DNA of 64,000 bases. It comes from Thermodesulfovibrionia bacterium. GTDB lineage: Bacteria > Nitrospirota > Thermodesulfovibrionia > UBA6902. Both the position numbers and the translations under genes were made by a program. The notes beneath the pieces are model-generated. The model saw only the letters and a list, made by a program, of their open reading frames with translations, was not told the origin of the DNA and ran no database searches. Below are positions 5,387 through 33,777 of the stretch, piece by piece. The stretch's first letter is position 1. Each line of letters starts with the position of its first letter. The stretch lies in assembly GCA_020053105.1 (NCBI GenBank), contig JAGVNU010000042.1, positions 15,502 through 79,501 on the forward strand. The letters run 5' to 3'.

Positions 5387-5403
5387 GAGAATTGCAAGAA
5401 AGA

Positions 5404-6234: not shown

Positions 6235-6250
6235 TTTAAAGTCACCTCCT

Positions 6251-7129: not shown

Positions 7130-7173
7130 CCCTCCTTATATATAGAGATATTCCTGTATTTCGTCTCATGATA

Positions 7174-11859: not shown

Positions 11860-11875
11860 TGGCATATGAATTGCT
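11860..11875 (+). promoter_or_regulatory. Sigma54 -24/-12 promoter (TGGCAT-N5-TTGCT) upstream of first OmcS-like gene
   Basis: tggcatatgaattgct. GG at 11861-62 and GC at 11873-74 give the canonical 12-nt offset. About 115 nt upstream of the ATG at 11990, next to a sigma54 activator gene. Confidence 0.75.
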
Positions 11876-11989
11876 TATGTTAAGGTAGTATAAATGACTT
11901 TATGATTGCTTAATTCTTAAGCTAAAATAAAAAAGGAGGTGGCTAAAACAAAAATGAAGACAAACCAAAAAACAAAGGAGGTAATTAAA

Positions 11990-12985
11990 ATGAGAAAAAT
12001 AATTATGGCAGTATTGCTGGCGTTTCTTTCAGTCACGCTGGTAAGTGTGTCTGCTTATGCAGCCATTAGTGGCACATGTAGTGACTGCCACACAATGCAC
12101 AACAGCCAGGACGGGGCTGCGGTTGACAGTAGTGGTACGAATGATAATCTTACAAAATTCGATTGTATCGGTTGTCATAGCGGAAATATTGCTGCTGCAC
12201 CCAATGTGACCGGCGAAGGAGCGACTATGACAGCGGGAGGTACATTTAAGAGCAGCATAGTCGGAAGCACTTCCAGCCGGACACATAATGTTCGTGACAT
12301 ATCTTGGACTGTTGATGAAGTAGCTCTTCTTAACACGACACCGGGTTCGGTGGCTGGAGGTTTTACAGAGCCTGCCGGCGCTACTGAATTGACCTGTGCA
12401 GGAACAACTGGCTGCCACGGGCAGGCCACAGGCGGATTTTCGGGCTTTCATCACAATGCTTATCCGAATGCATACCGGTTTCTCAGAATCAATGACGGCG
12501 CTAGCTACACGGATGTAAATGGAGTGGGTTCAGCCGACTGGGAGGTAGGCGGAGCTACAACAACAAATCACAACATATATGACGGTGATGGAACCAACAG
12601 CATAAGCACATTTTGCGCAATGTGTCATGGTGGTTTCCATGGAGGCAGCAATACCGCCAGTTCAAGTCCCTTTCAGAGACACCCGACTGACGAAGAAGCT
12701 TTAATTGATAACGTTGACGGAGCAGGAATCACAATAACATCTGCTACAATTAACGAGACTCCATTCGGTTTCACGAGCGCTCAAATTGCCTTAGGGATGG
12801 TGACTACCGATGTTACTACGGGATCAGCCTACACTGCTCCTAATGGATTAGTTACCTGCCTGTCTTGCCACAGGGCACATGGTTCAGCACAGAGTGACCT
12901 TCTGAGGTTCGACTATAGTACTATGAATGCCGGCAACAGTGTAGACAACGGAGGTTGTGAGACCTGTCATACAGCTCAAAGGTAG
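11990..12985 (+). CDS. OmcS-family multihaem (5 CxxCH + CX5CH) cytochrome, paralogue 1
   Basis: ORF track 11939..12985. I prefer the ATG at 11990 (AAGGAGG 9 nt upstream). Signal peptide ...SVSAYA, then [18 protein letters not shown]. Further motifs: [49 protein letters not shown]-terminal CETCHTAQR. These blocks match, in the same order, the G. sulfurreducens OmcS sequence as I remember it (CEGCHTMHNS ... LRHP ... NCLSCHRAHASG ... CNKCHAKD). Confidence 0.8.
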   Translation: MRKIIMAVLLAFLSVTLVSVSAYAAISGTCSDCHTMHNSQDGAAVDSSGTNDNLTKFDCIGCHSGNIAAAPNVTGEGATMTAGGTFKSSIVGSTSSRTHNVRDISWTVDEVALLNTTPGSVAGGFTEPAGATELTCAGTTGCHGQATGGFSGFHHNAYPNAYRFLRINDGASYTDVNGVGSADWEVGGATTTNHNIYDGDGTNSISTFCAMCHGGFHGGSNTASSSPFQRHPTDEEALIDNVDGAGITITSATINETPFGFTSAQIALGMVTTDVTTGSAYTAPNGLVTCLSCHRAHGSAQSDLLRFDYSTMNAGNSVDNGGCETCHTAQR

Positions 12986-13030: not shown

Positions 13031-13100
13031 AAGGTTCATCAAAAAATGTAATATGATGGGGAATTAAGAAGGTTCTGAAAATCAATTCTTGGAAATTACT

Positions 13101-14141
13101 ATGGGCCCTCAAATAAAAATAATAATAAGTCTGATAGGCATTTTACTTGCTTTTCTACCGGTACAGGTTTCATCAAAGGTAGCAGGACCATGTGTGAATT
13201 GTCATACTATGCATAATTCACAGGATGGAGCAAATGTCAGCGGGGCAGGCCCTAATCAATATTTGATGAACGTCGGAGCAAATATATGTGTAGCCTGTCA
13301 TTCATCAGATGTTGCAAATGAGACAATCAAGGATATAGGCGGCGGCACCAGAATACCGATTGTCTATAATACTTCCGGTTATCCGACAAATCCGCTTGCA
13401 GGTGGAAATTTCTATTATGTTTCCACAGGCAGCCCAAAGGTAGATAAAGACGCTTACGGGCATAATGTATATGGCATTTCAGCTCAGGATGCAAATATCT
13501 CTACTGTCGAAGGGGCTCCGGGCAACAAGAGTTGCGGCGGTGTTGCCAATGTATGCCATCGTACCCTTGCTGTAGAGCCGCAATCAAACAACTTTGATAA
13601 GGGCGGCTGTCAGGGGTGCCATGTTAATGTGTTTCATCATACCGATAATAATGAATACCGCTTTCTGAGTGGTCATGAAGGAACAAATTATTATGTTGAG
13701 GGAGTTGAAGATGCAAACTGGGAACAGACCCCGACACTGGCTAATCACAATGTATATAAAGGATATGACGGACCTGTCGGAGATAGTGTGACTTTAGAGA
13801 CTACAAAAAGTATAAGCTCCTATTGCGGTGGATGCCATTACTATTTTCATAGAGAAACTGCAACGGGCGGACCATCAAGCCCGTGGTTAAGGCATCCAAC
13901 TGACATTAAATTGCCTGAGACCGGTGAGTATGCGGCGTACAACCCGCCCACCGAATATAATAACCAGACGCCTGTTGCTTATACGAATCCATCAAGCCCG
14001 ACAAGGGCCACAGCCATTGTCATGTGTTTGTCATGTCATAGACCGCATGGTTCTGATCAGCCTGACATGCTGAGGTGGGATTATAGTACAAGCGAATTAG
14101 GCGGTTCAGGCGGGTGTTTAAACTGTCACACGACAAAATAG
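13101..14141 (+). CDS. OmcS-family multihaem (6 CxxCH + CX6CH) cytochrome, paralogue 2
   Basis: ORF track 13089..14141; ATG at 13101 preferred. Signal peptide, then [18 protein letters not shown]. Further motifs: [77 protein letters not shown] at the C-terminus. Confidence 0.8.
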   Translation: MGPQIKIIISLIGILLAFLPVQVSSKVAGPCVNCHTMHNSQDGANVSGAGPNQYLMNVGANICVACHSSDVANETIKDIGGGTRIPIVYNTSGYPTNPLAGGNFYYVSTGSPKVDKDAYGHNVYGISAQDANISTVEGAPGNKSCGGVANVCHRTLAVEPQSNNFDKGGCQGCHVNVFHHTDNNEYRFLSGHEGTNYYVEGVEDANWEQTPTLANHNVYKGYDGPVGDSVTLETTKSISSYCGGCHYYFHRETATGGPSSPWLRHPTDIKLPETGEYAAYNPPTEYNNQTPVAYTNPSSPTRATAIVMCLSCHRPHGSDQPDMLRWDYSTSELGGSGGCLNCHTTK

Positions 14142-14251
14142 GTCGCTGATTGTTATGAGATCTTTGTATATGCCCGGATGATGCAAAAAGGTCAGATTAA
14201 TCAAGGAATAGCTAAAAGAGCGATTATTTGTTAGATATAGAGGAGCAAACA

Positions 14252-15370
14252 ATGGAAGACAAATATTTCAACGATAAAAGGATCCTGATATTTTGTAGTG
14301 CAGTAATAATGTCACTATTTCTGACAGGCATCCCTTTTTCACTTTTTGCCGCAATTACCGGGGAATGCGCCAACTGCCACACTATGCACAACAGTCAGGA
14401 TGCATCGGTCATGGCAGATTACGGGGCATCCGGCAAGCCATGGAAAGGCAGTGGTCCAAATGATGCGCTGACTCGTGGTGATTGTCTCGGATGTCACGGC
14501 ATTGGTACTTCCAAAGTTGTAACCTTAGGCACAAGTGAGATACCTCAGGTTTATCATACTGATGCAACCGGTGATCTGGCAGGCGGCAACTTTGCTTATA
14601 TACTTGGTACAAAGGGTAGTGGCGCATCTGATGCTAAGGGACATAATATAGTAGAAATTGGTGATGCTGAAAGTACATTATCAGAGCCTCCGGGGCACCA
14701 TTCACCCAGCAGCATAAGAGTTAATATCACCTGTTCAGGAATAACCGGCTGTCATGGTAAACGAGCTTCAGGGGAAATCTTGAAAGGGGTCCATCATAAA
14801 AATGTTGATGGTGCGCTTGATACCTCTGACCAGGTTTATAACAGTTACAGATTTCTTTACGGGGTCAAGGGCTTTGAAAATACGACAGGTTCTTATAAAT
14901 GGCAGAACTTTGATAAAGATAATCATAATGAGTATTTTGGTGCAACTACCCCCATGAGTTACACCGGTTGTAATATCTGCCATACTCCGCAGGGGATCCA
15001 GCCTACTAATCATACAATAAGCGGTTTCTGTGGAACATGTCATCGAGAATTTCACACGGTTGAGGGTATTGGCGGCGACACCAGTACTCCGTTCCAGAGA
15101 CATCCAACGGATGTGATCTTGCCTGGCAGCGGTGAGTACGCAAGTTACAATGGGGTCGGCAATCAATATAGTGTACAGGCCCCGGTAGCCAGAACAGCGA
15201 ATCCTATTATTTCCATTAGCGATACGGTCATTCCTGGAACAGATGTAGTCATGTGTCTCTCCTGCCATATGGCACACGCGTCCAATTATCCTGACATGCT
15301 GAGGTGGGATTACAGTGCGATAGAATTAGGTGGTTCAGGAGGTTGCCTTATATGCCACACATCAAAATAA
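14252..15370 (+). CDS. OmcS-family multihaem (6 CxxCH + CX5CH) cytochrome, paralogue 3
   Basis: ORF track 14228..15370; ATG at 14252 follows GAGGAG. Signal ...SLFA, then [17 protein letters not shown]. Further motifs: [91 protein letters not shown]. Confidence 0.8.
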
Positions 15371-15700: not shown

Positions 15701-16672
15701 ATGGAAAAAAAAACCAATCAAGCGAGAATCCTGTTACAGAGGACAACTTATTTTCTTTCTTCTGTTCTAGTTGTGCTGTCGTTGGTCCCTTCAGCTCTGG
15801 AGTCCCAGCAGCTTGGTTCTGCCATTATTACCTATCAGGAGAGCATCACTACTGATGAAGAGGACAGAAATCTGGTATTGCCCTCGTTTATTTATGCAGA
15901 TTTATTAACAGGTGAAGTTTATGTTATAGATGGTAAGGGCAGAATTATTATATTTTCACCCGAGCTGTTTCCGTTAATTACACTCGGCAAAAGGGACGGA
16001 GTTGAAGCGCCTCAGGGGTTGACTGTGGATGCTGAAGGTAATCTTTATATTGCCCAGGCCGCATCAAAAAGCAATCCGAAAAACAGGATTTCGGTTTACA
16101 ATGCATGCCTGAAGTGGGAAAGGGATATATATTTGGAGGATTTTGAGGGGAGCGGTTCATTTGCCCCTTATCGCCTTGCAATAGACAAGAAGGGGAATCT
16201 GTATGTGGCGGCAAGCCATTTCCCCGGTGTCGTGTATGTAGATACAACGGGTCGTTTTATTGATATTATTGCACCTGAGGAGGATGGGAAAAAAATAAAA
16301 TTAAATAGTGTCGTTATTGACAAGGCAGGGAAAATATATGTTGTAAGTGAGGATCAGAGTCATATTTATGTTTATGATGAAAATAGAAAATTTATTAATA
16401 AATTCGGTGAAAAAGGCGGAAGCACGGGTAAACTCAGCCGTCCCAAGGCCATTGGGGTGGATGACCGAACAGGCAGAAGCTTTGTCGTGGATTATATGCG
16501 CCACACGGTAACTTCATATGATAAGGAAGGTAAGTACCTTTTTGAATTTGGTGGGCTCGGGTGGAGCGAAGGATGGTTCCAGCACCCGGTCAATTTAGCG
16601 ATTGACAATAAAGGCAGGATCTTTGTGGCAGATTTATTTAATCAGCGGGTACAGGTGTTTAATTCCTGGTAA
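15701..16672 (+). CDS. Secreted NHL-repeat beta-propeller protein
   Basis: ORF track 15665..16672; ATG at 15701 preferred. Hydrophobic signal (YFLSSVLVVLSLVPSALE). NHL-type blades, e.g. PQGLTVDAEGNLYIAQ, PYRLAIDKKGNLYVA, PKAIGVDDRTGRSFVVDYMRHTVTSYD, PVNLAIDNKGRIFVADLFNQRVQVF. Confidence 0.85.
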   Translation: MEKKTNQARILLQRTTYFLSSVLVVLSLVPSALESQQLGSAIITYQESITTDEEDRNLVLPSFIYADLLTGEVYVIDGKGRIIIFSPELFPLITLGKRDGVEAPQGLTVDAEGNLYIAQAASKSNPKNRISVYNACLKWERDIYLEDFEGSGSFAPYRLAIDKKGNLYVAASHFPGVVYVDTTGRFIDIIAPEEDGKKIKLNSVVIDKAGKIYVVSEDQSHIYVYDENRKFINKFGEKGGSTGKLSRPKAIGVDDRTGRSFVVDYMRHTVTSYDKEGKYLFEFGGLGWSEGWFQHPVNLAIDNKGRIFVADLFNQRVQVFNSW

Positions 16673-16853
16673 CTTATAATTAGAGTTTTTTTTATAAAGA
16701 CGCCAAGCTGGATTCGTATATAATTTCCGCGAAGGCGGCAATCAGGAATTCTGGGTCTAATATGATACTCCGGCTTTCTGCCGTAACGCGTACCGGGTCA
16801 ATACGGTGACTAAAATTAGGCAAAAACTTTATTTAATATAGGGCAGTAGAAAC

Positions 16854-18431
16854 ATGAAAAATACTAAATATATCTTAAGACTCCGGCTTTTCATGATATT
16901 TTTTGCAACTGTCATTTTTCCCCCGGGTTGTATGACTCCGGAAGAGCAGGCAAGTCACCCTGAGATGTTTAAGTGTCAGGTGTCCCTTTTTTTTAACGGC
17001 CCTGACATGGCTGCCAGTGATATCACCTTTGAGCTGGCGGGAGTCAATATAGTAGCAGAAGATGGGACTTCCAGAGAAGTTGTGCGCGCTCCTCTCCGTA
17101 TTAATTCCAATGATATAAAAGGCCGTCAAATATTTCTGGGTGAAAAATCTTTACCTGAAGGCAAGTACGAAAAGCTTCAGTTTGTCATAAAGGAAGCGTC
17201 TATCAGTAAAAAAGGGAAGACCTCACATCTAGCGTTGCCGCCCGGGGGAGTGGAGTTAGGCATTGATGTTTCCTTAAGAAGAAATCAGAGTACCACATTA
17301 TTTCTGAACTGGAATGCTGATGCATCTGTCAGTGAGGACTACCTATTCAACCCTGTATTTACGGTAAAGAGTCAGGGCGCTGAATTAAGTTCTCTGCTTA
17401 TTTACGTAACTAATGAGGATTCGGACTCCGTCTCGGTGATTAACAGGCAGGCCGGTGAGATAGCCGCGACAGTATTGGTGGGGAAAAAGCCGAGGGGGAT
17501 TGCGACTTCAATTACGGGAGAGCGCCTTAAGGTTTATGTTGTGAATTCAGGCTCAAACAGTATCTCAGTAATCGACCCTACAACGAATAAAATAGAGAAT
17601 GAGATCCCTATCAGGTTCGGCAGGCAGCCGGAAGCTATCGCTGTAGCAGGCATATCCGCTGATAAGGAGCTGATATTTGTCGCCAATTACGGCTCCAATT
17701 CAGTTTCCCTGGTGGACGCATCCACTTATCAGGAGCTGGAGAAGATAGATGTAGGGCGAGGCCCAATAGCAATTGCAACAGACCCACCGGTGGAGGATCT
17801 TATGGGATCGAGGTTTCTCAGCTTTGATGATATTAACTTATTAAGAAGTTACAGGGAAAGGTTTTTTAATGTTTATGTAGTCAATCAAAATTCCAACAGC
17901 GTTTCCGTGTTGAGGATTGACGCTGTGGCTAAGAAGAGCGTGGAAGTTATTAATCTAAGCGTGGAATGGAGACCCGTCGCGCTAAGCGTGGATTATCAAA
18001 GGGGCAAGGTTTATATAGCCAATTATGATTCTGACAAACTGTCTGTTATAGATATCCCCAAAACAGTAAAGGGCATTACGTCAGATGCTGTCAGCACCAT
18101 TAATAATGTGGGATTTTCTATAATAGGTGTCATCGCTGACCCGGCCTTCGACAGGCTGTATTTATTAAAAGAACGTACCGGGGAGGTAGTGATTGTCAGA
18201 CCTTTTACAGACAACCTTGATACCCTCAGGACAGTGATGCCTCCGGTAATGGGGACTATTGCCGTGGGGAGTTCGCCAAGAGCACTCGTTTTAGATCCTG
18301 AAGCCAGAAAGCTGTATGTAGTTAACAGCGGATCAGACAATATTTCAGTTATAGATAAAACCACAATAAATGAAGAGCAGATCATCCCTGTAGGCAAGAA
18401 GCCTTACGGTATAACATTTTTCCAGAAATGA
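16854..18431 (+). CDS. Lipoprotein with N-terminal DUF4382-like domain and YVTN-type beta-propeller
   Basis: 525-aa ORF with a lipobox-like FPPGC. The N-terminal roughly 170 aa resemble the DUF4382 pattern (LPEGKYEKLQFVI...LALPPGGVELGIDV...LFLNWNADASV). Then repeated YVTN-like blades (IYVTNEDSDSVSVINRQAGEI, VYVVNSGSNSISVIDPTTNKI, IFVANYGSNSVSLVDASTYQ, VYVVNQNSNSVSVL, VYIANYDSDKLSVID, LYVVNSGSDNISVIDKTT). Confidence 0.8.
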   Translation: MKNTKYILRLRLFMIFFATVIFPPGCMTPEEQASHPEMFKCQVSLFFNGPDMAASDITFELAGVNIVAEDGTSREVVRAPLRINSNDIKGRQIFLGEKSLPEGKYEKLQFVIKEASISKKGKTSHLALPPGGVELGIDVSLRRNQSTTLFLNWNADASVSEDYLFNPVFTVKSQGAELSSLLIYVTNEDSDSVSVINRQAGEIAATVLVGKKPRGIATSITGERLKVYVVNSGSNSISVIDPTTNKIENEIPIRFGRQPEAIAVAGISADKELIFVANYGSNSVSLVDASTYQELEKIDVGRGPIAIATDPPVEDLMGSRFLSFDDINLLRSYRERFFNVYVVNQNSNSVSVLRIDAVAKKSVEVINLSVEWRPVALSVDYQRGKVYIANYDSDKLSVIDIPKTVKGITSDAVSTINNVGFSIIGVIADPAFDRLYLLKERTGEVVIVRPFTDNLDTLRTVMPPVMGTIAVGSSPRALVLDPEARKLYVVNSGSDNISVIDKTTINEEQIIPVGKKPYGITFFQK

Positions 18432-18449
18432 TAAATTGCAGAAGATATA

Positions 18450-18465
18450 TGGAATCAGAATTGCG
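18450..18465 (+). promoter_or_regulatory. Candidate sigma54 -24/-12 element (TGGAAT-N5-TTGCG) upstream of the OM barrel gene
   Basis: tggaatcagaattgcg. GG 18451-52 and GC 18463-64 have the correct 12-nt offset, but the -24 hexamer deviates from TGGCAC at two positions. Confidence 0.35.
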
Positions 18466-18540
18466 GACTTCACATTTCATGCCCCGGATTATTATTGCTT
18501 GCATATCTGAAATGTTAAATCCGGGACAAAAAGATGACCT

Positions 18541-20829
18541 ATGAGGATTATATTATGCAATATTTCAGTCCTTATAATGTCCGTATTTTTATTAAACTCT
18601 TTTTCTCACTCACAGGGATTGAGCGGATATTTTGATATAAATAAAAATATCACTAAAGAATATGAGGATGGTGAAAGGACATCATCTTCCGAAGCATTAA
18701 ACCGTAATTTATATCTTAAGTTGCAGGAACCGATTACACCGGTGCTTTCTTATCAGTTTAACTTACGGACAAATTTTCTGGATTCAGAGACAACGGACTC
18801 CCTGGACGTGACTTCGACAAGGTACACCAGGTCGCTTGAGCCGGCGCTGGATCTGATTCTCGGGAACCCGGGGTATAATTTTAGTGCAGGCGCACGCCGC
18901 AGGGAACAATGGACCGCAGCGCATATGAATAATGACAACAGAAAGACAAATGAATATTATTATTCCAGATTCAGCCTGTCCCCCGAGGCATTGCCTTCTT
19001 TGACACTTCAGATAGACAAACAGAAGAACTATGATTATCTTTCTCCGAGGGCCGTGGATGACAGCAACACGGTATATTCCATCAACTCAGCGTATGATTT
19101 GCCGCCCGGAGATGTGAAGTTCAGATATACGGTCAATTATTCATATACTATAAACCAGACCCCTTTAAAGCTTAACAATAAAACTGTAATTGATAATTTT
19201 AACACCACGTATAACATTGGATATTCCAGCCGCTTCTGGCAAAATAAAGCCGACTACTCCATAGGCTATCAGGGGAATTATTCAAGGAGCAAGAGTGAGC
19301 AGTTTGTTACTCAAACGGGCATTGTCCTGAATGAGAGGGTCCCTTTTGCTGGGCTTTATATATTTGACGATATACCTGTTGATCCCACTACCGGGGCCTT
19401 AAATACTGAAAACAATCTCATAAATAATGATGTTACTACACCGATAACAAGCATAAACATCGGCCCAATCAGCCCCGCTACAACCCATATAAATCATAAT
19501 ATAGGCATCTGGGTTTCACAGGAAAATTCTGTAGACCGGTTATATATTTATGTTGATAGAGACGTAAGCGGCGATATAAATCTGGGAAACGTCAGCAACT
19601 GGAAGGTTTATAAGAGCAATTCAAATACAGCAGTAACAACCTGGACAGAGGTGGCCATAAACCAGGTGACGATTTCTATTAATACCCTTGATGGCATATT
19701 CCGCTATGAGCTAAAATTTTTGACCGAGCAAAATGCCGCCTATTTTAAGGCCGTTAACCTGGCGACTGTTAACTCCAGCAATGTAGGACCGACCGATCCG
19801 GTATATGTGACGGAGATTGAGGCCCTCGGCAATGATCTGGCGGATGAGGAAAAACTCGTTGACGCATCTAATACTTTTTCACAGCAACTAAGTTTAAATA
19901 CCAGTTTCAGGCCCACAAGCAAGCTGACCTTCGCACTTTATTATTCTATAGACAGGTCGGACCAGAACATGGTTTCAGTTGTAAATTCTGTAGGAGGCGT
20001 TTTCGAAAATATCTTCAGTGATTCCTTCGGGGACGATAAATGGGATTTCACAAGTAATGTAACAAGGGGCTACAGCGCGTCTTCTACCTGGCTGACGCAC
20101 AGGTTCCTTACCACCTCATTCCGTGTACAACGGAATGAATCCTTTGACAATATAGAAGAGACAGACTTTAATTCAAATTCCTACAGTCTGTCTTTTTTCA
20201 CTGAGCCGCTTCCGACACTTAATGCCAATTTATCATTAATCAGAAGTGACAATTTCAGTTTCGGTGATAAGGCCTCTGCGAATGATTCTATTCTGTTAAG
20301 TGTAGGTTCCAGACTATACAGGGACCTGAACATGATCACGGATGCAGTTTATACCAGGGCATACTCATTTGCGAGTGAGACCACTTCTACAACCCAGCAG
20401 ATAAACGGGACACTGGACGCCCTTCTTACCCGGAAATTGTCAGGGACCTTTACTTATCATATCAGCCGGACCTTGTCTGACGGCACGCCTTCAGATTTAA
20501 AGGATGGGTCTGTTTTTATTACTTACCGGCCGGGGAAGCTGATCAATTTCTCCGGCAATTTTAAAATAACAGATTCAGATGGGGAAACATCAATCGCAGA
20601 GGGAATGCTGATGGACTGGCTTCCTCTGCCTGCTATCAGATTAAATGCAAACTATCAGCACAGTGATTCAGAGCCGGGACCTGTAAAGACGGACACTATT
20701 AACGGATATGTAATATGGTATGTAACAAAGTTTGCAGATGTCCGCTTTATAAACAGTTACTCGAAACAGGTTGATAATAAAGAGACGGAAAATTACAGTA
20801 TGAGCGCAAGCTTAAATTGCAGATTCTGA
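18541..20829 (+). CDS. Large outer-membrane beta-barrel protein with an inserted jelly-roll (discoidin/F5-8C-like) domain
   Basis: 762-aa ORF with a signal peptide (VLIMSVFLLNSFSHSQG). Long runs of alternating-hydrophobicity strands (FTYHISRT, VFITYRPG, INFSGNFKIT, VIWYVTKFADVRFINSY). C-terminal OMP beta-signal ending ...YSMSASLNCRF. The central roughly 160 aa (nt about 19350-19830) end in VYVTEIEALG, typical of discoidin-like domains. Confidence 0.7.
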   Translation: MRIILCNISVLIMSVFLLNSFSHSQGLSGYFDINKNITKEYEDGERTSSSEALNRNLYLKLQEPITPVLSYQFNLRTNFLDSETTDSLDVTSTRYTRSLEPALDLILGNPGYNFSAGARRREQWTAAHMNNDNRKTNEYYYSRFSLSPEALPSLTLQIDKQKNYDYLSPRAVDDSNTVYSINSAYDLPPGDVKFRYTVNYSYTINQTPLKLNNKTVIDNFNTTYNIGYSSRFWQNKADYSIGYQGNYSRSKSEQFVTQTGIVLNERVPFAGLYIFDDIPVDPTTGALNTENNLINNDVTTPITSINIGPISPATTHINHNIGIWVSQENSVDRLYIYVDRDVSGDINLGNVSNWKVYKSNSNTAVTTWTEVAINQVTISINTLDGIFRYELKFLTEQNAAYFKAVNLATVNSSNVGPTDPVYVTEIEALGNDLADEEKLVDASNTFSQQLSLNTSFRPTSKLTFALYYSIDRSDQNMVSVVNSVGGVFENIFSDSFGDDKWDFTSNVTRGYSASSTWLTHRFLTTSFRVQRNESFDNIEETDFNSNSYSLSFFTEPLPTLNANLSLIRSDNFSFGDKASANDSILLSVGSRLYRDLNMITDAVYTRAYSFASETTSTTQQINGTLDALLTRKLSGTFTYHISRTLSDGTPSDLKDGSVFITYRPGKLINFSGNFKITDSDGETSIAEGMLMDWLPLPAIRLNANYQHSDSEPGPVKTDTINGYVIWYVTKFADVRFINSYSKQVDNKETENYSMSASLNCRF

Positions 20830-20872
20830 AGTTGTAACATATAATACTGCCTGTTTAATAGAATAAACTTGA

Positions 20873-21487
20873 ATGGGAATGAACATGATTGACAGGGTGA
20901 CCAAGGGAAAATGCGGCCGGTTTCAGATATATGTATTAACGGTCCTTTGTTTTTTTATATTTTTTACAGGCGGGTGCAGCACCACCTCGAAGAAATATAC
21001 CCGCCCTGACTTCGACATAAACTCGATTAACACCATTGCGGTGCTTCCCCTTGAGAACTTCACTTCAGACAATTACGCGGACGAAAAGATCAGAAGTAAA
21101 ATAAGCATTGAACTCTTATCACGGGACCTTAACATTATTGAGCCCGGCGAAATCATTTCGGTCTTAAGGGAACTGAAGATTAAATCCGTTGATTCCATTC
21201 GAAATAAGGACATGGTGAGCATAGGAAGCATGTTAAATGTTGAGGCTGTTCTCACCGGGTCGGTGGAAGCATTCGGGATAAGCAGAGGAATTGCGGCGTC
21301 ATATCCCGAGGTGTCTGTCCATCTGATGATGTTTGACACGGTCACAGGGAATATTGTCTGGTCGGCCTGGCATACAAGCGGCGGCGCAAGTTTCTGGACG
21401 AGGCATTTCGGCGCAGAAGGCAGCACCCTCGATAACGTATCTGAAAGGGTAATTAAAGAGGCATTTGATGCTCTATATAGTCGTTAA
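20873..21487 (+). CDS. Lipoprotein with a CsgG/LpoB/TolB-N-like alpha/beta domain (family shared with next two genes)
   Basis: 204-aa ORF with lipobox FFTGGC. Domain starts NTIAVLPLENFTSDNYADEKIR. C-terminal block HTSGGASFWTRHFGAEGSTLDNVSERVIKEAFDALY is paralogous to the 21573..22160 product. Confidence 0.7.
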   Translation: MGMNMIDRVTKGKCGRFQIYVLTVLCFFIFFTGGCSTTSKKYTRPDFDINSINTIAVLPLENFTSDNYADEKIRSKISIELLSRDLNIIEPGEIISVLRELKIKSVDSIRNKDMVSIGSMLNVEAVLTGSVEAFGISRGIAASYPEVSVHLMMFDTVTGNIVWSAWHTSGGASFWTRHFGAEGSTLDNVSERVIKEAFDALYSR

Positions 21488-21572
21488 CTGCCGGTCATGG
21501 GGAAAATTAATTATAAGGCCTGCCGGCGGAGAATTACATAACTGGAAATTGATACTTGATGAATAAAGGAGA

Positions 21573-22160
21573 ATGGCTATGCGTTTATTGAAAAAATATG
21601 TACCGGCATTAATGGGTTTAATCCTGTTTATTATTTCGGGATGCCGAGGCGATATCCCGGTTTATCATATCAGTGAGGACATAGATTTCAGTTATTACAA
21701 GAGAGTAGCGGTTGTTCCTTTTGATAATCTGACAAATGACAAATATGCCGATGAGATCGTGAGGCAGGTGGTTGTGAGCGAGCTTTTGGCATCAGGCCTT
21801 GTTGACGTTGTGTTTCCAGGTGAAGTCAAGAGCGCCATTGCCGAGCTGGGCATTAAATCCGTCTCTGCACTGACGGCAAACCAAATCAAGTCGCTGTGTA
21901 ATACACTTAAGGTGGAAGCGCTCATTGTCGGGGCGGTTGAAGAATACGGCGAAGTGAGGATGGGAAATATCTCAGCGCCCCAGGTTACGTTGAGCTTAAT
22001 GATGGCGGATGCGAACACCGGGTCTATCGTGTGGTCCATTACGAAAACACGCGGAGGCGCAGGTTTTATGGCACGGCATTTTGGAGCAAGGCATGAAACA
22101 GTCAGTGAAACTGTGTTGTTGCTTGTAAGAGAATCAATCAGGACTCTATATAAGCAGTAA
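21573..22160 (+). CDS. Lipoprotein, paralogue of 20873..21487
   Basis: 195-aa ORF with lipobox FIISGC. Motifs KRVAVVPFDNLTNDKYADEIVR and KTRGGAGFMARHFGARHETVSETVLLLVRESIRTLY. Confidence 0.7.
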   Translation: MAMRLLKKYVPALMGLILFIISGCRGDIPVYHISEDIDFSYYKRVAVVPFDNLTNDKYADEIVRQVVVSELLASGLVDVVFPGEVKSAIAELGIKSVSALTANQIKSLCNTLKVEALIVGAVEEYGEVRMGNISAPQVTLSLMMADANTGSIVWSITKTRGGAGFMARHFGARHETVSETVLLLVRESIRTLYKQ

Positions 22161-22284
22161 TTGGTCATTGCCTTATGATCAGCTGTTAACATCCACTGAC
22201 ATTTAACCTGTGTCGGTCTAAAGACTAAACGATTACCATGGCCAACATACAAATATCAAAGGTTTCTGTCCTGGGATTTATATA

Positions 22285-24126
22285 ATGAAGAAAGTAATTA
22301 TCAGCTTCATTATATTTATTGTCGGGGCACTGTCTCTCTTTATATATTCCTCGAATAATGAGGGAAGGGCCACCCGATTATCAGGTGAGGAAATGACTTC
22401 TGAGAAGAAGGTATCGACGTCCCCTGCAAAAGGTCCCACCGGTTCTGCGGAAGTACCCTTGATCACGGGCCCAGAAATCAAAGAGCCTGCAACAAGCAGG
22501 GATGAGACCGAAAAACCTATTGAAGATGCTATTCATAAGAAAGAGCCGGCGATAAAAGCTGAAGCAAGATTGGAAGCGGCCCTGCCGGTGCAAGAGATAA
22601 AAGAAAAAGGAGAACAGCCTGCGACTTTTACTGCTGAAGTTTCCCCGGGGGAAATGAATAGAAAAGACGAAGCCAGGCCTCTCGAAAAAGAGACGGACCG
22701 GTTTGTTGAGAAAAAGGAATTAATTATTAAAGAAGAACCTGTCGGAACGGCTGAAAAAATAACGGTAGCCGCGCCCGTAGAGGAGATAATAATAACTGTC
22801 GATAAGCCGGTCCTTATTAAGGAAGTGGAAAAGGCCGCAATACCCCGTGAGGAAATTAAACAGCCGATCATAAAGACAGCATTGGCCAGGGAAGAGTCAC
22901 GTGTTGTGGAAGAAAAAGCGGAGACCATGCCTGCCGGAGGATTGATTATAATGCCGATTGAAACTCCGGCGACTGTCCTTAGCAAACTATCGTCTGCAGG
23001 ATCGAAGGATATAATGCCTGAGAGGGCAAAAGAGCAGCCTTCTGTAAAGATGGAACCGGCTGTTGCTGTTGTCTCTACTGAGAAGGCCACGGTCAAGGGA
23101 GAAATAATTTCCCTGGCAGAGAAAACGAAAGGGGACATGGAAAAGCCTGGGCCGTTTACCGGTGAGATGTTGATTGAAGGGAATAACAAAAGGATTGCGA
23201 TATTCCCATTTGAAAACTTATCTGATAACAGGGACGCATTCAAACATGTTTTACCGCTTTTGATAGATAAGCTGGAAAAAAGAGGGTTTGAAGTTGTTGA
23301 TGAGGACGACCTCAACAATTTTTTATGCGGGGAAAGGGTCCGGTCCACGGGTTATATTTCAAGAGAACTCTCCGGGAAAATACGAAAGAGATTTAACGTA
23401 TCAACTATTCTGGCAGGGGCCATAATTTCCTTCTCCGATGAAGATATCCCAGAGTTTGGAATCCTTGCGCGCATGGTAGAAACATCCGGCGGCACAATCA
23501 TCTGGGCGGATTATTCCGCTGCAACAGGGGAGGATTTCATTGCGGTCCTGGAGCTGGGGAGATTGAAGACGGTATTCAGTTTAATTCCAAAGGTCATTGA
23601 TATATTGTTTGCATCATATAAAGACGGAGATATTAACAGGGAAACAAAACATTTGCACAGAATTGCCGTGATGCCTTTCAAGAATAACACCGGCTTCAAT
23701 AATGCGGGAATTATCGCCACCTATATGTTCATAGTGGAAATATTTAAAAGCCGGCTTTTTATACCTGTAGAATATGGTGATATCAGAGATATAATCATTA
23801 AACAGGGCATAAGGCTTAAAGGTGATATCGGTTATGAAAATATCAGCGAGCTTTCAAATGAATTGAAAGCAAGGGGTATCCTGGTGGGTGTAGTCGATAA
23901 TTATTCGAACGGCGCCGATGGTTCCATGTCCCCGAATGCTGGCATTACCGCAAGGCTTGTCGATGGCAGTAATAAAAAAATTATGTGGTATAATAGCAGC
24001 CAATTGAGCGGAGAAGATAACATTATTGCCCTTGACTGGGGCAGGATCAGGTCAGTCCATTCAGTTGCTTATAAGGCTGTTTCCGGTTTAGTGAAAGAAA
24101 TGAGCAGGAAAAAATGGCGTGATTAG
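22285..24126 (+). CDS. Envelope protein: signal/anchor + about 290-aa E/K/P/A-rich low-complexity linker + two copies of the same lipoprotein alpha/beta domain
   Basis: 613-aa ORF with an N-terminal hydrophobic helix (VIISFIIFIVGALSLFIY). Residues about 30-320 are rich in E, K, P, I, A. Two domain starts: KRIAIFPFENLSDNRDAF and HRIAVMPFKNNTGFNNAG. Confidence 0.7.
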   Translation: MKKVIISFIIFIVGALSLFIYSSNNEGRATRLSGEEMTSEKKVSTSPAKGPTGSAEVPLITGPEIKEPATSRDETEKPIEDAIHKKEPAIKAEARLEAALPVQEIKEKGEQPATFTAEVSPGEMNRKDEARPLEKETDRFVEKKELIIKEEPVGTAEKITVAAPVEEIIITVDKPVLIKEVEKAAIPREEIKQPIIKTALAREESRVVEEKAETMPAGGLIIMPIETPATVLSKLSSAGSKDIMPERAKEQPSVKMEPAVAVVSTEKATVKGEIISLAEKTKGDMEKPGPFTGEMLIEGNNKRIAIFPFENLSDNRDAFKHVLPLLIDKLEKRGFEVVDEDDLNNFLCGERVRSTGYISRELSGKIRKRFNVSTILAGAIISFSDEDIPEFGILARMVETSGGTIIWADYSAATGEDFIAVLELGRLKTVFSLIPKVIDILFASYKDGDINRETKHLHRIAVMPFKNNTGFNNAGIIATYMFIVEIFKSRLFIPVEYGDIRDIIIKQGIRLKGDIGYENISELSNELKARGILVGVVDNYSNGADGSMSPNAGITARLVDGSNKKIMWYNSSQLSGEDNIIALDWGRIRSVHSVAYKAVSGLVKEMSRKKWRD

Positions 24127-24154
24127 TTATAGCCTTGCTATTGGATCGTAAATT

Positions 24155-25816
24155 ATGAAAGCCGTCTTGAATATGCGGAGTGTTTTGATAATGCGCGGGA
24201 ATAATTTGTCTTTTTTTTGCCTTTGCTCATTGTTCTGTGTTCTGGTTGTTTCCGGCTGTGCATCGGTCCCCGGAGAGGGGAAAAATGCACTGGCATGGGT
24301 CGATGGAGAGCCGGTCACCAGAGAAGATCTCGGATATTCACTGCAGATTGCCCATCGCCGGGAGGACCTCTCAAATGCGAAGAAATTCGATATGTCCCAG
24401 TATATACAGAAGTTGATAGATGACAGATTGATTGTGCAGGAAGCGCTGCGTATGGGACTGGAAGATTCTCCAGAGCTCCAGGAGAAGATCAGGGAATATG
24501 TACTGAGGGAGTCGGTAGTAAAACTTTATAATGAGGAAATTGTCGGCAAGGCTTCTGTGACCCCGGAAGATGTGAAAAAATACTACAGGGAAAACTACGA
24601 GGGTTTTACTTTAAACATTATCGAGGCAGGCAGTGAGGATGAAGCAGGTGAGATAATACGCAAACTTCAGGGCGGTGAAGGGTTTGATAAATTTGCCCTT
24701 GATTATGCTTCTCATTCAGAAAACCAGAATCCCAAAGATCTTGTAGTCAAAAAAAAGAACCTGAGGCCGGCCATACAGGAGGCTGTTTCCGGTTTAAAAC
24801 CTGGAGACATAAGCGGTGTTATAAAAGACCAGGACAAATATTACATTGTGAAATTATTAGACAGACAGGCTGCGCTGGATGAGGACCTGGCATCTGTCCG
24901 TGCCAGCATTGCGAGCATTCTAAGAGATGAGAAGATTAAGAAACGAAGCGATGATTATCTCGCTGAACTTCGCAAAAAATCAGATGTTAAAATTGACAGG
25001 GACCTTTTGGCCTCTATTAAACTGGAAGAAGGAAATAAGACACGCGAAGAATGGTTAAATGATAAAAGGCCCCTTGTGCAGGTAAATAACATGACTCTTG
25101 CAGCCGGCGATTTTGCCGCTATGCTCCCGGAAAAGCCTCTTAAATCAAACGAAGAAATCCTCGATCAGTGGATTGACCGCAAGGTTGTAGATATTGAGGC
25201 GCTGGGCCGGCATTATGATATAAACACAGACCTGAAAGACATGTTGCAGCGTTATAAAAATGTGCTTCTTAAGACCGCATTTGTGAGGAAAGTAATTAAC
25301 CCTCAAATAAAGGTATCAGATAAAGATGCGGAAGATTATTACCATGGCCACCAGAATGAGTACGCCAAACAAGGTAAATACAAGATCCAGCAGATTACAT
25401 TGAAGTCTCAGGAAGACGCACAAGCGGTACTTAATAGTCTGGCAGGCGGCGCCAGTTTCTCCTGGCTTGCCAAGACCAAATCAAATGACCCATTAGCCCC
25501 ATCCGGCGGGGTCTCGGATTGGCAGACTAAAGCTCAATTGCCCGGGCCTGTAAAGGATATTATTGATGATCTTAAGCAGGGAGAGGTTAGCCCGGTATTT
25601 CAAATTGACGGGGAATATCTGATAATCAGACTCATGGAGAAGTCCGGGTTTGAAATTGAGGAATTCCGTAATGTGAAGGTAACCGTTTTAAATTCAGTTT
25701 ACAAGGAAAAATATAATGAAATATACGATGCATATATTAATAAATTAAGAAATGAAGCCAGGATAGAGCTGAATGATGAGGCTATCCGGTCTTTTGAAGA
25801 AACCTTTATAAAATAG
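24155..25816 (+). CDS. SurA/PpiD-like periplasmic chaperone lipoprotein with parvulin-like PPIase domain(s)
   Basis: 553-aa ORF with lipobox VVSGC. SurA-N-like helical region (SQYIQKLIDDRLIVQEALRMG). Parvulin-like segments (PEDVKKYYRENYEGF...GDISGVIKDQDKYYIVKLLD and DAEDYYHGHQNEY...GGVSDW...GEVSPVFQIDGEYLIIRLME). The first lacks the GGDLG signature. Confidence 0.7.
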   Translation: MKAVLNMRSVLIMRGNNLSFFCLCSLFCVLVVSGCASVPGEGKNALAWVDGEPVTREDLGYSLQIAHRREDLSNAKKFDMSQYIQKLIDDRLIVQEALRMGLEDSPELQEKIREYVLRESVVKLYNEEIVGKASVTPEDVKKYYRENYEGFTLNIIEAGSEDEAGEIIRKLQGGEGFDKFALDYASHSENQNPKDLVVKKKNLRPAIQEAVSGLKPGDISGVIKDQDKYYIVKLLDRQAALDEDLASVRASIASILRDEKIKKRSDDYLAELRKKSDVKIDRDLLASIKLEEGNKTREEWLNDKRPLVQVNNMTLAAGDFAAMLPEKPLKSNEEILDQWIDRKVVDIEALGRHYDINTDLKDMLQRYKNVLLKTAFVRKVINPQIKVSDKDAEDYYHGHQNEYAKQGKYKIQQITLKSQEDAQAVLNSLAGGASFSWLAKTKSNDPLAPSGGVSDWQTKAQLPGPVKDIIDDLKQGEVSPVFQIDGEYLIIRLMEKSGFEIEEFRNVKVTVLNSVYKEKYNEIYDAYINKLRNEARIELNDEAIRSFEETFIK

Positions 25817-25826: not shown

Positions 25827-27803
25827 TTGAGGGCTATGAGGATGAAATCCGGATTTAAACATATCATTTTTAAAATTTCTTTGTTGGCAGTTGTATTTCT
25901 TTTTGTCCAGTGCGCGCCAGAAATAAAACCTTCCAGAAAAGGTTTTGTGCCTAAACCATGCATGGACTGCCATACCGAGACCCAGAGCGAGTTTTCAAAA
26001 CAGTACGTGCATGATCCTATGAGTAAGCGTGATTGTGAGGCATGTCATCTTCGCCACGGAAGACTGGCAGTTAAATCATTTGTCGAAAGGGAAGAAAGAA
26101 AGCTCTGTTTTATTTGTCACACGAAGATGGCCTCAGATGTTGAAGGGATGACAAGCGTACATACAGTCCTGAAACAGGGCAAGTGCCTGCCGTGCCACAA
26201 CGCCCATGCGTCTGATAATAAAGCCCTTCAGAAAAAGGTGGGGAACGAGCAGTGTTTTATGTGTCATGATAAGGCCCCTTTTGAAAGGACGAAGCGGCAT
26301 AAGCCGCTTGATGACGGGTGCATTGCATGTCATGCGGCTCATGGGTCTCAATATAATGGCAACCTGATCAAAGCGGAAGTGGATCTGTGCCGGTCCTGTC
26401 ATAAATATGAGGAGGACGGTTTCAGAAATGCCCATAAAAAATATCCCGTTGAAAAGGGTAACTGCTCCGGATGCCACACATCTCACAGTTCCTCAAACGA
26501 CAGGCTTTTGAGAGAATCGGTCCATGAACCTCTCATTTCGGGACAGTGTAATTCATGCCACAAACCGGATACGGACCCGGAACCTTTTGCGGTCATTGCC
26601 CCGGACGGTAAACTTTGTTATACATGCCATGAAAAAGAAGAAAAAAAATATAAGACTGCATACGTGCATCCCCTGACGAATGAGGGCAAATGCCTGAGCT
26701 GTCACAGTCCTCATGCATCAGACTATCCCAGGGTCACAATTAGAGATAAAAATGATCTTTGCACGGACTGCCATATGGAAAAGCCGAATATTAAGGTCAG
26801 CAACCTCCATGCACCTATAAAAAAAGACGGCTGCACTGCCTGCCATAATCCGCATGCATCGGAAAATAAGTTTTACCTGAAAGCAGCGGAAAAAAAGATA
26901 TGTTTTTCGTGCCATCCCAAAGTAGAAGAAGAGTTGATAAAGGCGGCATATTCACACAAGCCTTTTCTGGACATCGAATGCTCAAAATGCCATGATTCCC
27001 ATGGTTCAAACAATGCTGCAATGGTCAGGATGCCGCTGACCGACCTGTGTTATGAGTGTCATAAAGACGCGGCAGAAAAATATTTCAAGACCTATGTCCA
27101 TAAACCGGTGAGTGACAGGCAATGCTCAGCCTGCCATGCGTCACATGCCTCAGAATATGATAAATTATTAAAGAATTCAGAGGCGGATCTGTGTATGAAG
27201 TGCCATGAGAGCATGTATCTTGAAATGGAAGAGGAAGGCACCCATCCGCTGTTTAAAGACAAAAAGTGCGGCACCTGCCACGATCCGCATGCAAGCGACA
27301 ATGTTGCATCCACCATTATGCCGGCCAATAAACTTTGCTTTACGTGTCACGAAGCTGTAATGGCAGGGATAACTAAAAGCGCTGTTAAGCATCTTCCTGT
27401 AGAAGAGGGCAAATGTTCTGAGTGTCACAGTCCTCACGGGACGAAGCTTAAATATCAGTTATTAAACCGCCCCAATGAACTATGTCTCTCGTGCCATGAG
27501 AGGATAATTACTACAACAGCGAGAAAGGGCCATATATACATGGAAAACGGTGACTGCCTAAGCTGCCATAGTTCGCATTATTCAGACATGAAGCATCTAC
27601 TCAAGGGCGCTGACCCTGCAATATGTGTTCAATGTCACTCTACAGATACGGAAAGACTGCTGAAAGTGCACCGGGAATCGATAAACAAAATAGGCCGCTG
27701 CACAAGTTGTCATGAACCTCATGTAACGGAACGCCAGGGCTTACTGAGAGAGATAATGCACGAACCGTTTACCAGGGGAGATTGTGAGGCCTGCCATGTA
27801 TAG
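25827..27803 (+). CDS. 26-haem c-type cytochrome (probable lipoprotein)
   Basis: 658-aa ORF. I counted 26 CxxCH motifs, regularly spaced about 20-25 aa apart, many as CxxCHxxH[AG]S pairs. Possible lipobox LFVQC. The last haem motif (CEACHV) is the C-terminus. Start is uncertain (TTG 25827, ATG 25836 or 25842). Confidence 0.9.
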   Translation: MRAMRMKSGFKHIIFKISLLAVVFLFVQCAPEIKPSRKGFVPKPCMDCHTETQSEFSKQYVHDPMSKRDCEACHLRHGRLAVKSFVEREERKLCFICHTKMASDVEGMTSVHTVLKQGKCLPCHNAHASDNKALQKKVGNEQCFMCHDKAPFERTKRHKPLDDGCIACHAAHGSQYNGNLIKAEVDLCRSCHKYEEDGFRNAHKKYPVEKGNCSGCHTSHSSSNDRLLRESVHEPLISGQCNSCHKPDTDPEPFAVIAPDGKLCYTCHEKEEKKYKTAYVHPLTNEGKCLSCHSPHASDYPRVTIRDKNDLCTDCHMEKPNIKVSNLHAPIKKDGCTACHNPHASENKFYLKAAEKKICFSCHPKVEEELIKAAYSHKPFLDIECSKCHDSHGSNNAAMVRMPLTDLCYECHKDAAEKYFKTYVHKPVSDRQCSACHASHASEYDKLLKNSEADLCMKCHESMYLEMEEEGTHPLFKDKKCGTCHDPHASDNVASTIMPANKLCFTCHEAVMAGITKSAVKHLPVEEGKCSECHSPHGTKLKYQLLNRPNELCLSCHERIITTTARKGHIYMENGDCLSCHSSHYSDMKHLLKGADPAICVQCHSTDTERLLKVHRESINKIGRCTSCHEPHVTERQGLLREIMHEPFTRGDCEACHV

Positions 27804-29127
27804 GGAAAAAATTAAAAATATAATATTAAAAATGAAAAATAACGGGAATGAAAAAGTTTTCAATTCAATGACCTGCAGTTTGCAATTTGCGGTTTACTTT
27901 TTTATAGTCGGTTTTCTGCTCTTGTGGGGCAGTGCCGTCCATGCGCAGGTTAAACTGAAAACAAAAGTGCCTGACCTTTGTTTTGAATGCCATAAAGAGC
28001 TGAAAAAGGCCCAGTCAGATCCGTTTGTACATTTTTTGTTTAAAGAAGGAAAATGCGTTACCTGTCACGACGCTCATGTTGGCAAGAGAAAGGGCCTGCT
28101 GGTTGATCAGGTTGATACTATCTGCCTCGGATGTCATGACAGCATAAGGAATCTGGTTGAAAATACGATAGTCCACGGCGCTCTCAGGGAACATAACTGC
28201 ACAGAATGCCACTCCGCGCACAGTGCGAAAAATAAGTATCTGCTGGCCAAAGAGGAAAAGGGCCTCTGTCTGACTTGTCATGAAAATTTAAACCAACAAT
28301 TGCAGAAGCCATATATATGCCGTCCTTTTAAGGACGGGGAGTGTTCAGCCTGTCACAATTCTCATGCATCTTCGGTTAATAGTCTTCTGGTCTCCCCGCC
28401 TGATAAGCTGTGCAAAAAATGTCACGAACCAAAATGCAGGGCCGGCTCGGTATCTATCGCTTCTGCAGTGGAAGAGATGGATTGTACTACATGTCATTCC
28501 GGTCATAGTTCCCTTGATAAAGGCCTTCTCGGTCCCTTCGGTCATAAGGTCTTTCTCGACAAGAATTGTGAGGAGTGCCATAATCCGATCAAATCACCGC
28601 GAGACATAACCACTAAGTTAAAAGGGGCGGATTTATGTTTCAAATGCCATAAAAGAAACATGTCAAAATATGAATATGTCGACAATGACATACATGTTAA
28701 AGATGCCAGGAACCCGTGCAGTGTCTGTCATGATGAGCATGCTTCAACCCAGAAGAATCTCACAAAGAAGGAATCCGATGTTTGCGCAAAGTGCCATGAA
28801 AGTACGGAAAGAAGGACAGCGGCAATGGAAAGGGCACTGAAATCAGCAGGATGTGAGCCGATAAAGAACAGAAAGTGTTTCGAGTGTCATATACCTTCTC
28901 ACTCATCCCGTCCGCTTGATTACCGGGCAGATGAAATTCCGCTTTGCGCCCGATGTCATTCAGCACAGCATAAGATTACTCATCCGGTTGGAAGTGATAT
29001 TAAAGATCCCCGCAACGGCCGGCCTTTGACCTGTAATTCATGCCATAGTATGCATTCTGCCAATGCCGACTTTATGCTTACTCATGACAGAAAGAGGGCA
29101 CTCTGTATCCAGTGTCACAAGATGTGA
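27796..29127 (+). CDS. 16-haem c-type cytochrome
   Basis: ORF track 27784..29127. The ATG at 27796 follows GAGG and overlaps the upstream stop codon. TM/signal FAVYFFIVGFLLLWGSAVHA. I counted 16 CxxCH motifs. Confidence 0.9.
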   Translation: MYREKIKNIILKMKNNGNEKVFNSMTCSLQFAVYFFIVGFLLLWGSAVHAQVKLKTKVPDLCFECHKELKKAQSDPFVHFLFKEGKCVTCHDAHVGKRKGLLVDQVDTICLGCHDSIRNLVENTIVHGALREHNCTECHSAHSAKNKYLLAKEEKGLCLTCHENLNQQLQKPYICRPFKDGECSACHNSHASSVNSLLVSPPDKLCKKCHEPKCRAGSVSIASAVEEMDCTTCHSGHSSLDKGLLGPFGHKVFLDKNCEECHNPIKSPRDITTKLKGADLCFKCHKRNMSKYEYVDNDIHVKDARNPCSVCHDEHASTQKNLTKKESDVCAKCHESTERRTAAMERALKSAGCEPIKNRKCFECHIPSHSSRPLDYRADEIPLCARCHSAQHKITHPVGSDIKDPRNGRPLTCNSCHSMHSANADFMLTHDRKRALCIQCHKM

Positions 29128-29189: not shown

Positions 29190-29205
29190 AGGCATTATTA
29201 TTGCA
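29190..29205 (+). promoter_or_regulatory. Sigma54 -24/-12 promoter (AGGCAT-N5-TTGCA) upstream of OmcS-like gene 4
   Basis: aggcattattattgca. GG 29191-92 and GC 29203-04 have the 12-nt offset. About 48 nt upstream of the TTG start at 29253. Confidence 0.6.
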
Positions 29206-30344: not shown

Positions 30345-30397
30345 TGAGAGGGAGAGAATCTACAGGGATGAGAAGACGGCATAACGAAGAGTACATA

Positions 30398-33006: not shown

Positions 33007-33058
33007 CTTATCGATAATTATTTTCTGTTTAATGAAAAAAATTAAGATGGGTTATATG

Positions 33059-33730: not shown

Positions 33731-33777
33731 AGGATAATATAGCTTATAGGGCAGTTAAAGGGCAAGACTGCAGAAAA

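Follow-up and report, generated by a model that had tools for sequence, protein, structure and literature searches.

A predicted osc-type block for nanowire assembly in a divergent clade of Nitrospirota

The export of folded, haem-loaded cytochromes and their polymerisation into micrometre-long, conductive filaments have been called unresolved (PMC12307469; bioRxiv 10.1101/2025.10.22.684050). Here we analysed seven consecutive genes for envelope proteins, at positions 15701-25816 (+ strand) of a 64,000-nucleotide (nt) stretch of DNA, hereafter the window, from a Thermodesulfovibrionia bacterium (Nitrospirota; contig JAGVNU010000042.1). To judge by sequence homology and gene order, they represent a divergent form, in Nitrospirota, of the osc (omcS-companion) nanowire-assembly block of Geobacter sulfurreducens, and we consider it highly likely that they encode an osc-type module for the assembly or anchoring of nanowires. 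The system itself has already been described and the window holds a new, divergent member of it; what the comparisons below appear to add is a homology of its small lipoproteins to PelC and a duplication of the lipoprotein in the Nitrospirota clade.

Homology and synteny with the Geobacter osc block

Calling of open reading frames (ORFs) confirmed that the seven co-directional envelope genes pointed out in an earlier note on this DNA are real and correctly placed. They are separated by gaps of 181, 109, 43, 85, 124 and 28 nt, and a terminator scan located no + strand terminator-like site in the intervals between them; the scan of the window for sigma-70 promoters and terminators gave results not above chance. 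None of the seven products contains a CxxCH motif, which agrees with the note's description of the block as haem-free, and the block is indeed flanked by genes for OmcS-like cytochromes on one side and by those for a 26-haem and a 16-haem cytochrome on the other.

A genome scan with one genome per species, in which OmcS of G. sulfurreducens (a rebuilt sequence) served as the query, yielded at least 78 loci in Geobacteraceae, Citrifermentans, Geomonas, Anaeromyxobacter, Acidobacteriota, Nitrospirota and other taxa, with proteins 41-65% identical to the query among the loci listed. The six-frame ORFs of these loci were searched with the window proteins (BLASTP, phmmer and hidden Markov models, HMMs). 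Their canonical gene order was NHL propeller, OmcS (1-3 copies), YVTN propeller (~470 amino acids, aa), outer-membrane barrel (~740 aa), a single lipoprotein (~195 aa), a two-domain protein (~375 aa), a peptidyl-prolyl isomerase (PPIase, ~590 aa), a 26-haem cytochrome, a ~450-aa cytochrome and a further NHL propeller. Among the 44 OmcS loci with full 10-kb flanks, homologues of the barrel were present in 39, of the lipoprotein in 38, of the NHL, YVTN and two-domain proteins in 36 each, and of the PPIase in 35. Identities were measured against Geomonas, Citrifermentans, Geobacter sp. AOG1 and Anaeromyxobacter, G. sulfurreducens not being among the loci listed, and ranged from 20 to 40% between the window proteins and their positional counterparts (E 1e-10 to 1e-137). 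The 26-haem cytochrome shared 36-40% (E to 1e-137), the small lipoprotein B shared 32-36% with the single canonical lipoprotein, and the YVTN propeller shared 24-27% (E 1e-26 to 1e-35) with the product of the gene immediately 5' of the barrel in Geobacteraceae and Anaeromyxobacter. Identities were 23-25% over more than 450 aa for the PPIase, 21-25% for the barrel and 20-25% for the two-domain protein, and an HMM built solely from window-type barrels matched the canonical barrels over their full length, insert included (E 1e-19 to 1e-55).

Around the window itself, a clade of about 65 barrel sequences could be delimited at 37% identity or more, and those carrying a taxon name belonged to Nitrospirota or Thermodesulfovibrio (metagenome bins). 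A barrel-anchored metagenome scan, which reaches this clade only, provided 36 loci. Loci whose barrels are just 30-41% identical to that of the window keep the entire arrangement: OmcS-like cytochromes, the NHL and YVTN propellers, the barrel, two lipoproteins, the two-domain protein, the PPIase, a ~26-haem and a ~16-haem cytochrome, an OmcS-like cytochrome and another cytochrome. Within the clade, 13 of the 14 loci that were long enough (counted by eye) kept the whole block with its cytochromes. As to the co-occurrence check suggested in the earlier note, all the long-enough loci among the 36 carry the PPIase and cytochromes, with a single exception described below (L003). Chance does not account for the gene arrangement, which is found again in dozens of independent loci.

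In the literature on G. sulfurreducens, omcS, omcT and oscC (GSU2501) are assigned to the osc operon, in which oscI is GSU2495 and oscJ is GSU2494 (PMC13194489), and the eight genes GSU2500-GSU2493, downstream of the OmcS-like GSU2501, are called a "nanowire secretion" cluster whose GSU2495 product has ~70 kDa and 26 haems (PMC12977616). The maturation and secretion cluster of OmcS nanowires, GSU2500-GSU2493 (oscD-K), is attributed to Shen et al. 2025, Cell Chem Biol (doi 10.1016/j.chembiol.2024.12.013), and the sources that refer to it give folding as the role of OscH, secretion as that of the channel-like OscEFG and filament morphology as that of the beta-propeller OscD (PMC13194489, PMC12977616, bioRxiv 10.1101/2025.10.22.684050). 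We mapped oscD-H from the gene order in other Geobacteraceae, the anchors oscC, oscI and oscJ, and the extent of the eight-gene block GSU2500-2493; the assignment of OscD to the YVTN propeller, OscE to the barrel, OscF to the lipoprotein, OscG to the two-domain protein and OscH to the PPIase fits the five genes found in Geobacteraceae between the last OmcS-like gene and the 26-haem gene.

Compared with the osc locus, the window shows the same block order, homologues at each position, adjacent OmcS-family genes, and a kinase and a sigma-54 regulator upstream. Because this gene-by-gene homology, in the same order, is to blocks beside genuine OmcS genes, we assign the window cluster to the osc system. 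The differences are also clear: the proteins are only 20-40% identical, the OscF-like lipoprotein is duplicated, the NHL propeller precedes the YVTN propeller within the block, the OscG-like protein carries a tether of ~265 aa and no lipobox, and the OmcS-like subunits are shorter (348-380 aa vs ~430), occur as 3+1 paralogues and carry a CX5CH motif in three of four. Of the two models put forward in the earlier note, that of a dedicated secretion and polymerisation apparatus for the OmcS-like subunits gains support from this homology to a block with published roles in Geobacter. The note's remark that no well-characterised system of this composition exists is out of date, the osc block having been published.

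Predicted structures of the block proteins

In the AlphaFold2 model of the 762-aa barrel, DSSP assigns 29 long strands, which points to a barrel of either 28 or 30, and a beta-sandwich domain is inserted at residues ~260-421. The protein ends in NCRF, an outer-membrane signature, and a C-terminal Phe is nearly invariant in the family. By standard barrel geometry, ~30 strands correspond to ~55 Å across between C-alpha atoms, and the OmcS filament is roughly 4 nm wide; with these dimensions, the modelled barrel could be roomy enough for a folded protein of OmcS size or for the base of a filament. Searches of Pfam and NCBIfam and a profile search of the PDB returned no family match for the barrel, MtrB/PioB and other porin families included, and the only PDB profile signal was a weak CBM32 match of the insert, whose similarity to F5/8-type-C and CBM32 (discoidin-like) domains is weak and sub-threshold. 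A profile search placed 1035 representatives at 50% clustering in the barrel family, from taxa that include Thermosulfidibacteraceae, Omnitrophota, Spirochaetota and Schekmanbacteria. A homology search with an alignment of 46 remote barrels recovered the same Nitrospirota set and reached no wider. Several proteins of unrelated length (P0131, P0144, P0147, P0153, P0167, and L117 at 1845-3071) matched the insert alone (profile positions ~253-425), so the insert is a mobile domain in its own right. In the canonical loci L032, L033, L073 and L081 the barrel ORFs reach 1053-1252 aa, a size that suggests extra domains or fusions.

The small lipoproteins A and B are 37% identical to each other, and Pfam gave A weak matches to GNA1162-like proteins and LpoB. 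The best Foldseek matches of lipoprotein B were PelC structures (TM-score 0.70-0.82, E~1e-10), namely PelC of G. metallireducens, the P. phytofirmans dodecamer and the PelBC complex, which ranked above GNA1162, FlgT, CsgG and LpoB; in the same direction, hmmsearch with the lipoprotein family profile against the PDB found PelC at E=1.2e-9. On this fold and profile evidence the small lipoproteins are predicted PelC homologues, and PelC replaces CsgG, named in the earlier note, as their nearest relative. The third member of what the note had called three related lipoproteins is related as stated; it is, in contrast to the 204- and 195-aa proteins, a two-domain paralogue in which we found no lipobox Cys at the N-terminus and which is therefore not a lipoprotein. 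Its 613 residues comprise a hydrophobic N-terminus, a ~265-aa acidic linker in which E, K, A and P abound, and the PelC-fold domains. A 271-aa ORF runs antisense (22533-23348, - strand) within the low-complexity linker of this gene and is most likely a compositional artefact, not a gene. Giant OscG-like proteins of 897-1464 aa were seen in the canonical loci L006, L008, L012, L036, L073 and L077.

Twelve PelC lipoproteins assemble into a ring that sits on the PelB barrel (PMC12141448). The suggestion of the earlier note that the domains of roughly 170 aa form rings may hold by analogy, the domain being a PelC homologue and PelC a ring-forming 12-mer. The small lipoprotein occurs once in 47 of 47 canonical loci and always twice in the window clade, which makes three PelC-fold domains per set in the former vs four in the latter; that three and four both divide twelve we take as numerology.

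The CsgG-like and usher-like readings of the earlier note were rejected because of low fold scores and absent components. CsgG, the curli channel, aligned with a TM-score of ~0.4 at an rmsd of ~11 Å, and no window protein matched Pfam CsgG; PapC and FimD, the ushers of chaperone-usher systems, gave TM-scores of just 0.23-0.34, and no PapD-like domain was found among the window proteins. Both systems secrete and polymerise an extracellular fibre via an outer-membrane channel, as is proposed for the block, and CsgG falls in the same broad lipoprotein fold group as the small lipoproteins. The CsgG structure has membrane-spanning hairpins, which the 195-aa protein probably lacks.

Of the remaining proteins of the block, the YVTN propeller is a probable lipoprotein, to judge from its N-terminal sequence. 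The NHL protein at its 5' side is probably the counterpart of the NHL proteins that flank the canonical osc blocks (GSU2493 type). The PPIase contains two PPIC rotamase domains (Pfam/NCBIfam).

Cytochromes, regulators and neighbouring genes

The OmcS-like cytochrome 3 matches OmcS (PDB 6ef8) over nearly its full length (residues 45-362, E=1.2e-7). All four paralogues are 25-31% identical to OmcS, and their haem motifs align with those of OmcS; none departs from the motif CHTMHNS, which we take to contain His16 of OmcS, the ligand of the neighbouring subunit's haem. Such an inter-subunit histidine-haem bond does exist (PMC12307469). Three of the four proteins (cytochromes 1, 3 and 4) have CX5CH at the position of the third OmcS CxxCH, and an additional CxxCH brings two of these three to seven candidate haem sites, vs six.

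Upstream of the cytochrome genes, the kinase and regulator pair of the window matches GSU2507 (histidine kinase) and GSU2506 (sigma-54 regulator), which are numbered just above omcS (GSU2504). Two sigma-54-like elements lie in intergenic positions 5' of OmcS-like genes. The count of this pattern across the window is at chance level, and the presence of such candidate elements beside a sigma-54-dependent regulator is only suggestive.

A divergently oriented cluster (659-8256, - strand) looks, from its predicted products, like an inner-membrane module that carries electrons from quinol to the periplasm, and might feed the nanowire cluster. Directly downstream (32110-36870, - strand) are genes for a multihaem cytochrome, a SurA_N-only protein (33059-33730), hemC, hemA and a CcsA-type cytochrome c assembly gene, so haem synthesis and cytochrome maturation are encoded next to the cluster as well. 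The coordinates of the features are collected in Table 1.

Table 1 Features of the window in and around the osc-type block (positions in window numbering)
Feature	Position	Strand	Remarks
Further cytochrome	659-1717	-	
764-aa multihaem cytochrome	1968-4262	-	
Second NHL propeller	4388-5305	-	
276-aa protein	within 659-8256	-	no family match
Cytochrome b561/DUF4405 membrane protein	6251-7129	-	
360-aa cytochrome	7174-8256	-	hydrophobic C-terminus
Sensor histidine kinase	8577-10097	+	HisKA/HATPase motifs in translation
Sigma-54-dependent NtrC-type response regulator	10139-11554	+	receiver, AAA+ sigma-54 interaction and HTH domains
Sigma-54-like -24/-12 element TGGCATATGAATTGCT	11860-11875	+	one consensus mismatch; intergenic, 5' of cytochrome 1
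OmcS-like cytochrome 1	11939-12985	+	5 CxxCH + 1 CX5CH
OmcS-like cytochrome 2	13089-14141	+	6 CxxCH
OmcS-like cytochrome 3	14228-15370	+	6 CxxCH + 1 CX5CH
Secreted NHL-repeat beta-propeller	15665/15701-16672	+	Pfam NHL 9e-11; signal-peptide-like N-terminus
YVTN/lactonase 7-blade beta-propeller	16854-18431	+	TIGR02276 2.5e-50; lipobox-like FPPGC; OscD (GSU2500) counterpart
Outer-membrane beta-barrel, 762 aa	18541-20829	+	AlphaFold2 pLDDT 88; OscE (GSU2499) counterpart
PelC-fold lipoprotein A, 204 aa	20873-21487	+	lipobox FTGGC; OscF (GSU2498) paralogue
PelC-fold lipoprotein B, 195 aa	21573-22160	+	lipobox IISGC; AlphaFold2 pLDDT 83; OscF (GSU2498) counterpart
Two-domain protein, 613 aa	22285-24126	+	OscG (GSU2497) counterpart; two PelC-fold domains, residues ~300-430 and ~450-613
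SurA_N + 2x parvulin PPIase lipoprotein	24155-25816	+	Pfam Rotamase_2 1.9e-32, SurA_N_3; lipobox VVSGC; OscH (GSU2496) counterpart
26-haem cytochrome	25827-27803	+	26 CxxCH exactly; OscI (GSU2495) counterpart
16-haem cytochrome	27784-29127	+	16 CxxCH exactly; position conserved; OscJ (GSU2494) counterpart
Sigma-54-like -24/-12 element	29190-29205	+	intergenic, 5' of cytochrome 4
OmcS-like cytochrome 4	29253-30344	+	haem-motif alignment to OmcS
470-aa multihaem cytochrome, last of cluster	30323-31735	+	

Alternative functions, proposed working and significance

Some observations weigh against an assembly or anchoring module for nanowires. The barrel is absent nearby in 5 of the 44 full-flank OmcS loci, and its Foldseek matches are generic large barrels, with no specific structural relative among them. 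In the model, the insert either plugs the barrel lumen or sits outside it. OmcS is dispensable for some electron-transfer phenotypes, according to PMC13194489. The exceptional locus L003, in a closed metagenome-assembled genome of Nitrospiraceae (CP070788.1, 7342-13556), consists of NHL, YVTN, barrel and two lipoproteins only, with no two-domain protein, PPIase or cytochrome within 10 kb, and its barrel is 51% identical to that of the window; here the system is either reduced or split, or its core has been put to another use.

The second model of the earlier note, that of a porin-cytochrome conduit, would have the barrel house the 26- or the 16-haem cytochrome as MtrB houses MtrA, so that electrons cross the outer membrane, and the lipoproteins and the PPIase would be assembly factors of the conduit complex instead of the filament. 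It should be considered that both cytochromes are constantly linked to the block, in the OmcS-anchored as well as in the window-clade loci, that a filament must somehow be charged from the periplasm (PMC10954620), and that, among known structures, MtrB (6r2q_B) gives the barrel its highest TM-score. However, this match is weak (TM-score 0.38-0.43, 9% identity) and on a par with those to TonB-dependent receptors and ushers, and the family searches described above linked the barrel to neither MtrB/PioB nor any other porin family. Large barrels encoded with periplasmic and outer-surface multihaem cytochromes are also a feature of MtrCAB and of the Geobacter Pcc/Ext conduits, but these lack propellers, PelC-like lipoproteins and a PPIase, and the window barrel falls outside their sequence families. 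Moreover, the cytochromes are encoded four to five genes away from the barrel, whereas Geobacter porin-cytochrome clusters consist of four genes including the porin, as described in PMC4282303, and the published genetics of the homologous block, as reported by the sources cited above, point to OmcS secretion and morphology. We therefore regard the conduit as an unlikely principal function, which could coexist with a role in nanowire assembly.

Given the PelC homology of the lipoproteins and the weak CBM32/discoidin similarity of the barrel insert, one might also picture a PelBC-like exporter of matrix or glycan, with a carbohydrate-binding insert in its barrel, that merely accompanies the cytochromes. 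The cytochrome-free locus L003 would suit such an exporter, as would the glycosylation genes that often follow OmcE clusters (bioRxiv 10.1101/2025.10.22.684050). PelBC (PDB 5t10, 5t11, 9h80; PMC12141448) does share with the block the PelC fold and the encoding of lipidated lipoproteins beside an outer-membrane barrel. Nevertheless, there is no glycosyltransferase, synthase or PelA/D-G-like gene in or beside the block, and in the various phyla the block is almost always linked to OmcS-like genes. The window barrel, with ~30 strands, greatly exceeds the PelB barrel in size and is unrelated to it, and in place of a polysaccharide the cargo would presumably be a folded haem protein or a filament. 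Polymer export is, on balance, very improbable. The Pel export system proper was rejected as an identity for the block: no pel-like genes were found and the barrel has no similarity to PelB. OmcE clusters follow a similar logic, as they are said to comprise two multihaem cytochromes, two beta-propeller lipoproteins, a filament subunit and a large beta-barrel (bioRxiv 10.1101/2025.10.22.684050), and differ in their subunit family, the tetrahaem OmcE.

For an osc-type module, we propose the following working. Sec would take the OmcS-like subunits across the inner membrane; they would acquire their haem in the periplasm, where the OscH-like SurA/parvulin lipoprotein would fold them and keep them competent for assembly. 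Both OscF-like lipoproteins (A and B), together with the two PelC-fold domains that the OscG-like protein carries, may form a ring or funnel at the periplasmic rim of the OscE-like barrel, a proposal made because PelC sits likewise on PelB. The barrel would then pass the subunits outward or, in the outer membrane, anchor the growing filament by its base; this passage or anchoring, like the ring-on-barrel architecture, is inferred from the analogy. The YVTN (OscD-like) and NHL propellers would scaffold the filament or limit its morphology, and the 26- and 16-haem cytochromes would supply electrons to its base. This scheme is built on the domains identified in the proteins, on their homology and shared gene order with the Geobacter osc genes, on the match of the lipoproteins to PelC and on the modelled barrel, with the genetic roles of OscD-H taken from the literature.

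A more elaborate reading, which we advance tentatively and hold to be rather doubtful in its entirety, is that the window clade has a distinct nanowire system. Its OmcS-related subunits would be short, come in several paralogues and have as many as seven haem sites (one being an unusual CX5CH), and they would be mounted on the ~30-strand barrel through a hetero-oligomeric PelC-like ring of A, B, G1 and G2 domains (e.g. 3 x 4 = 12) tethered by the OscG-like linker. The paralogous subunits might form different or mixed filaments.

Recognisable homologues for each position of the published osc block are thus present even in a Nitrospirota clade that is deeply divergent, its subunits being only 25-31% identical to OmcS. 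By analogy, the PelC homology would give the block a concrete architecture in which a ring of lipoproteins sits on a giant barrel, and the variant with the duplicated lipoprotein is a natural comparison for its stoichiometry. For annotation, the barrel and the PelC-like pair may mark nanowire capacity more reliably than the fast-evolving cytochromes do. If the clade does have a distinct system, it would offer a structural model for a folded haem polymer that crosses, or is anchored in, the outer membrane.

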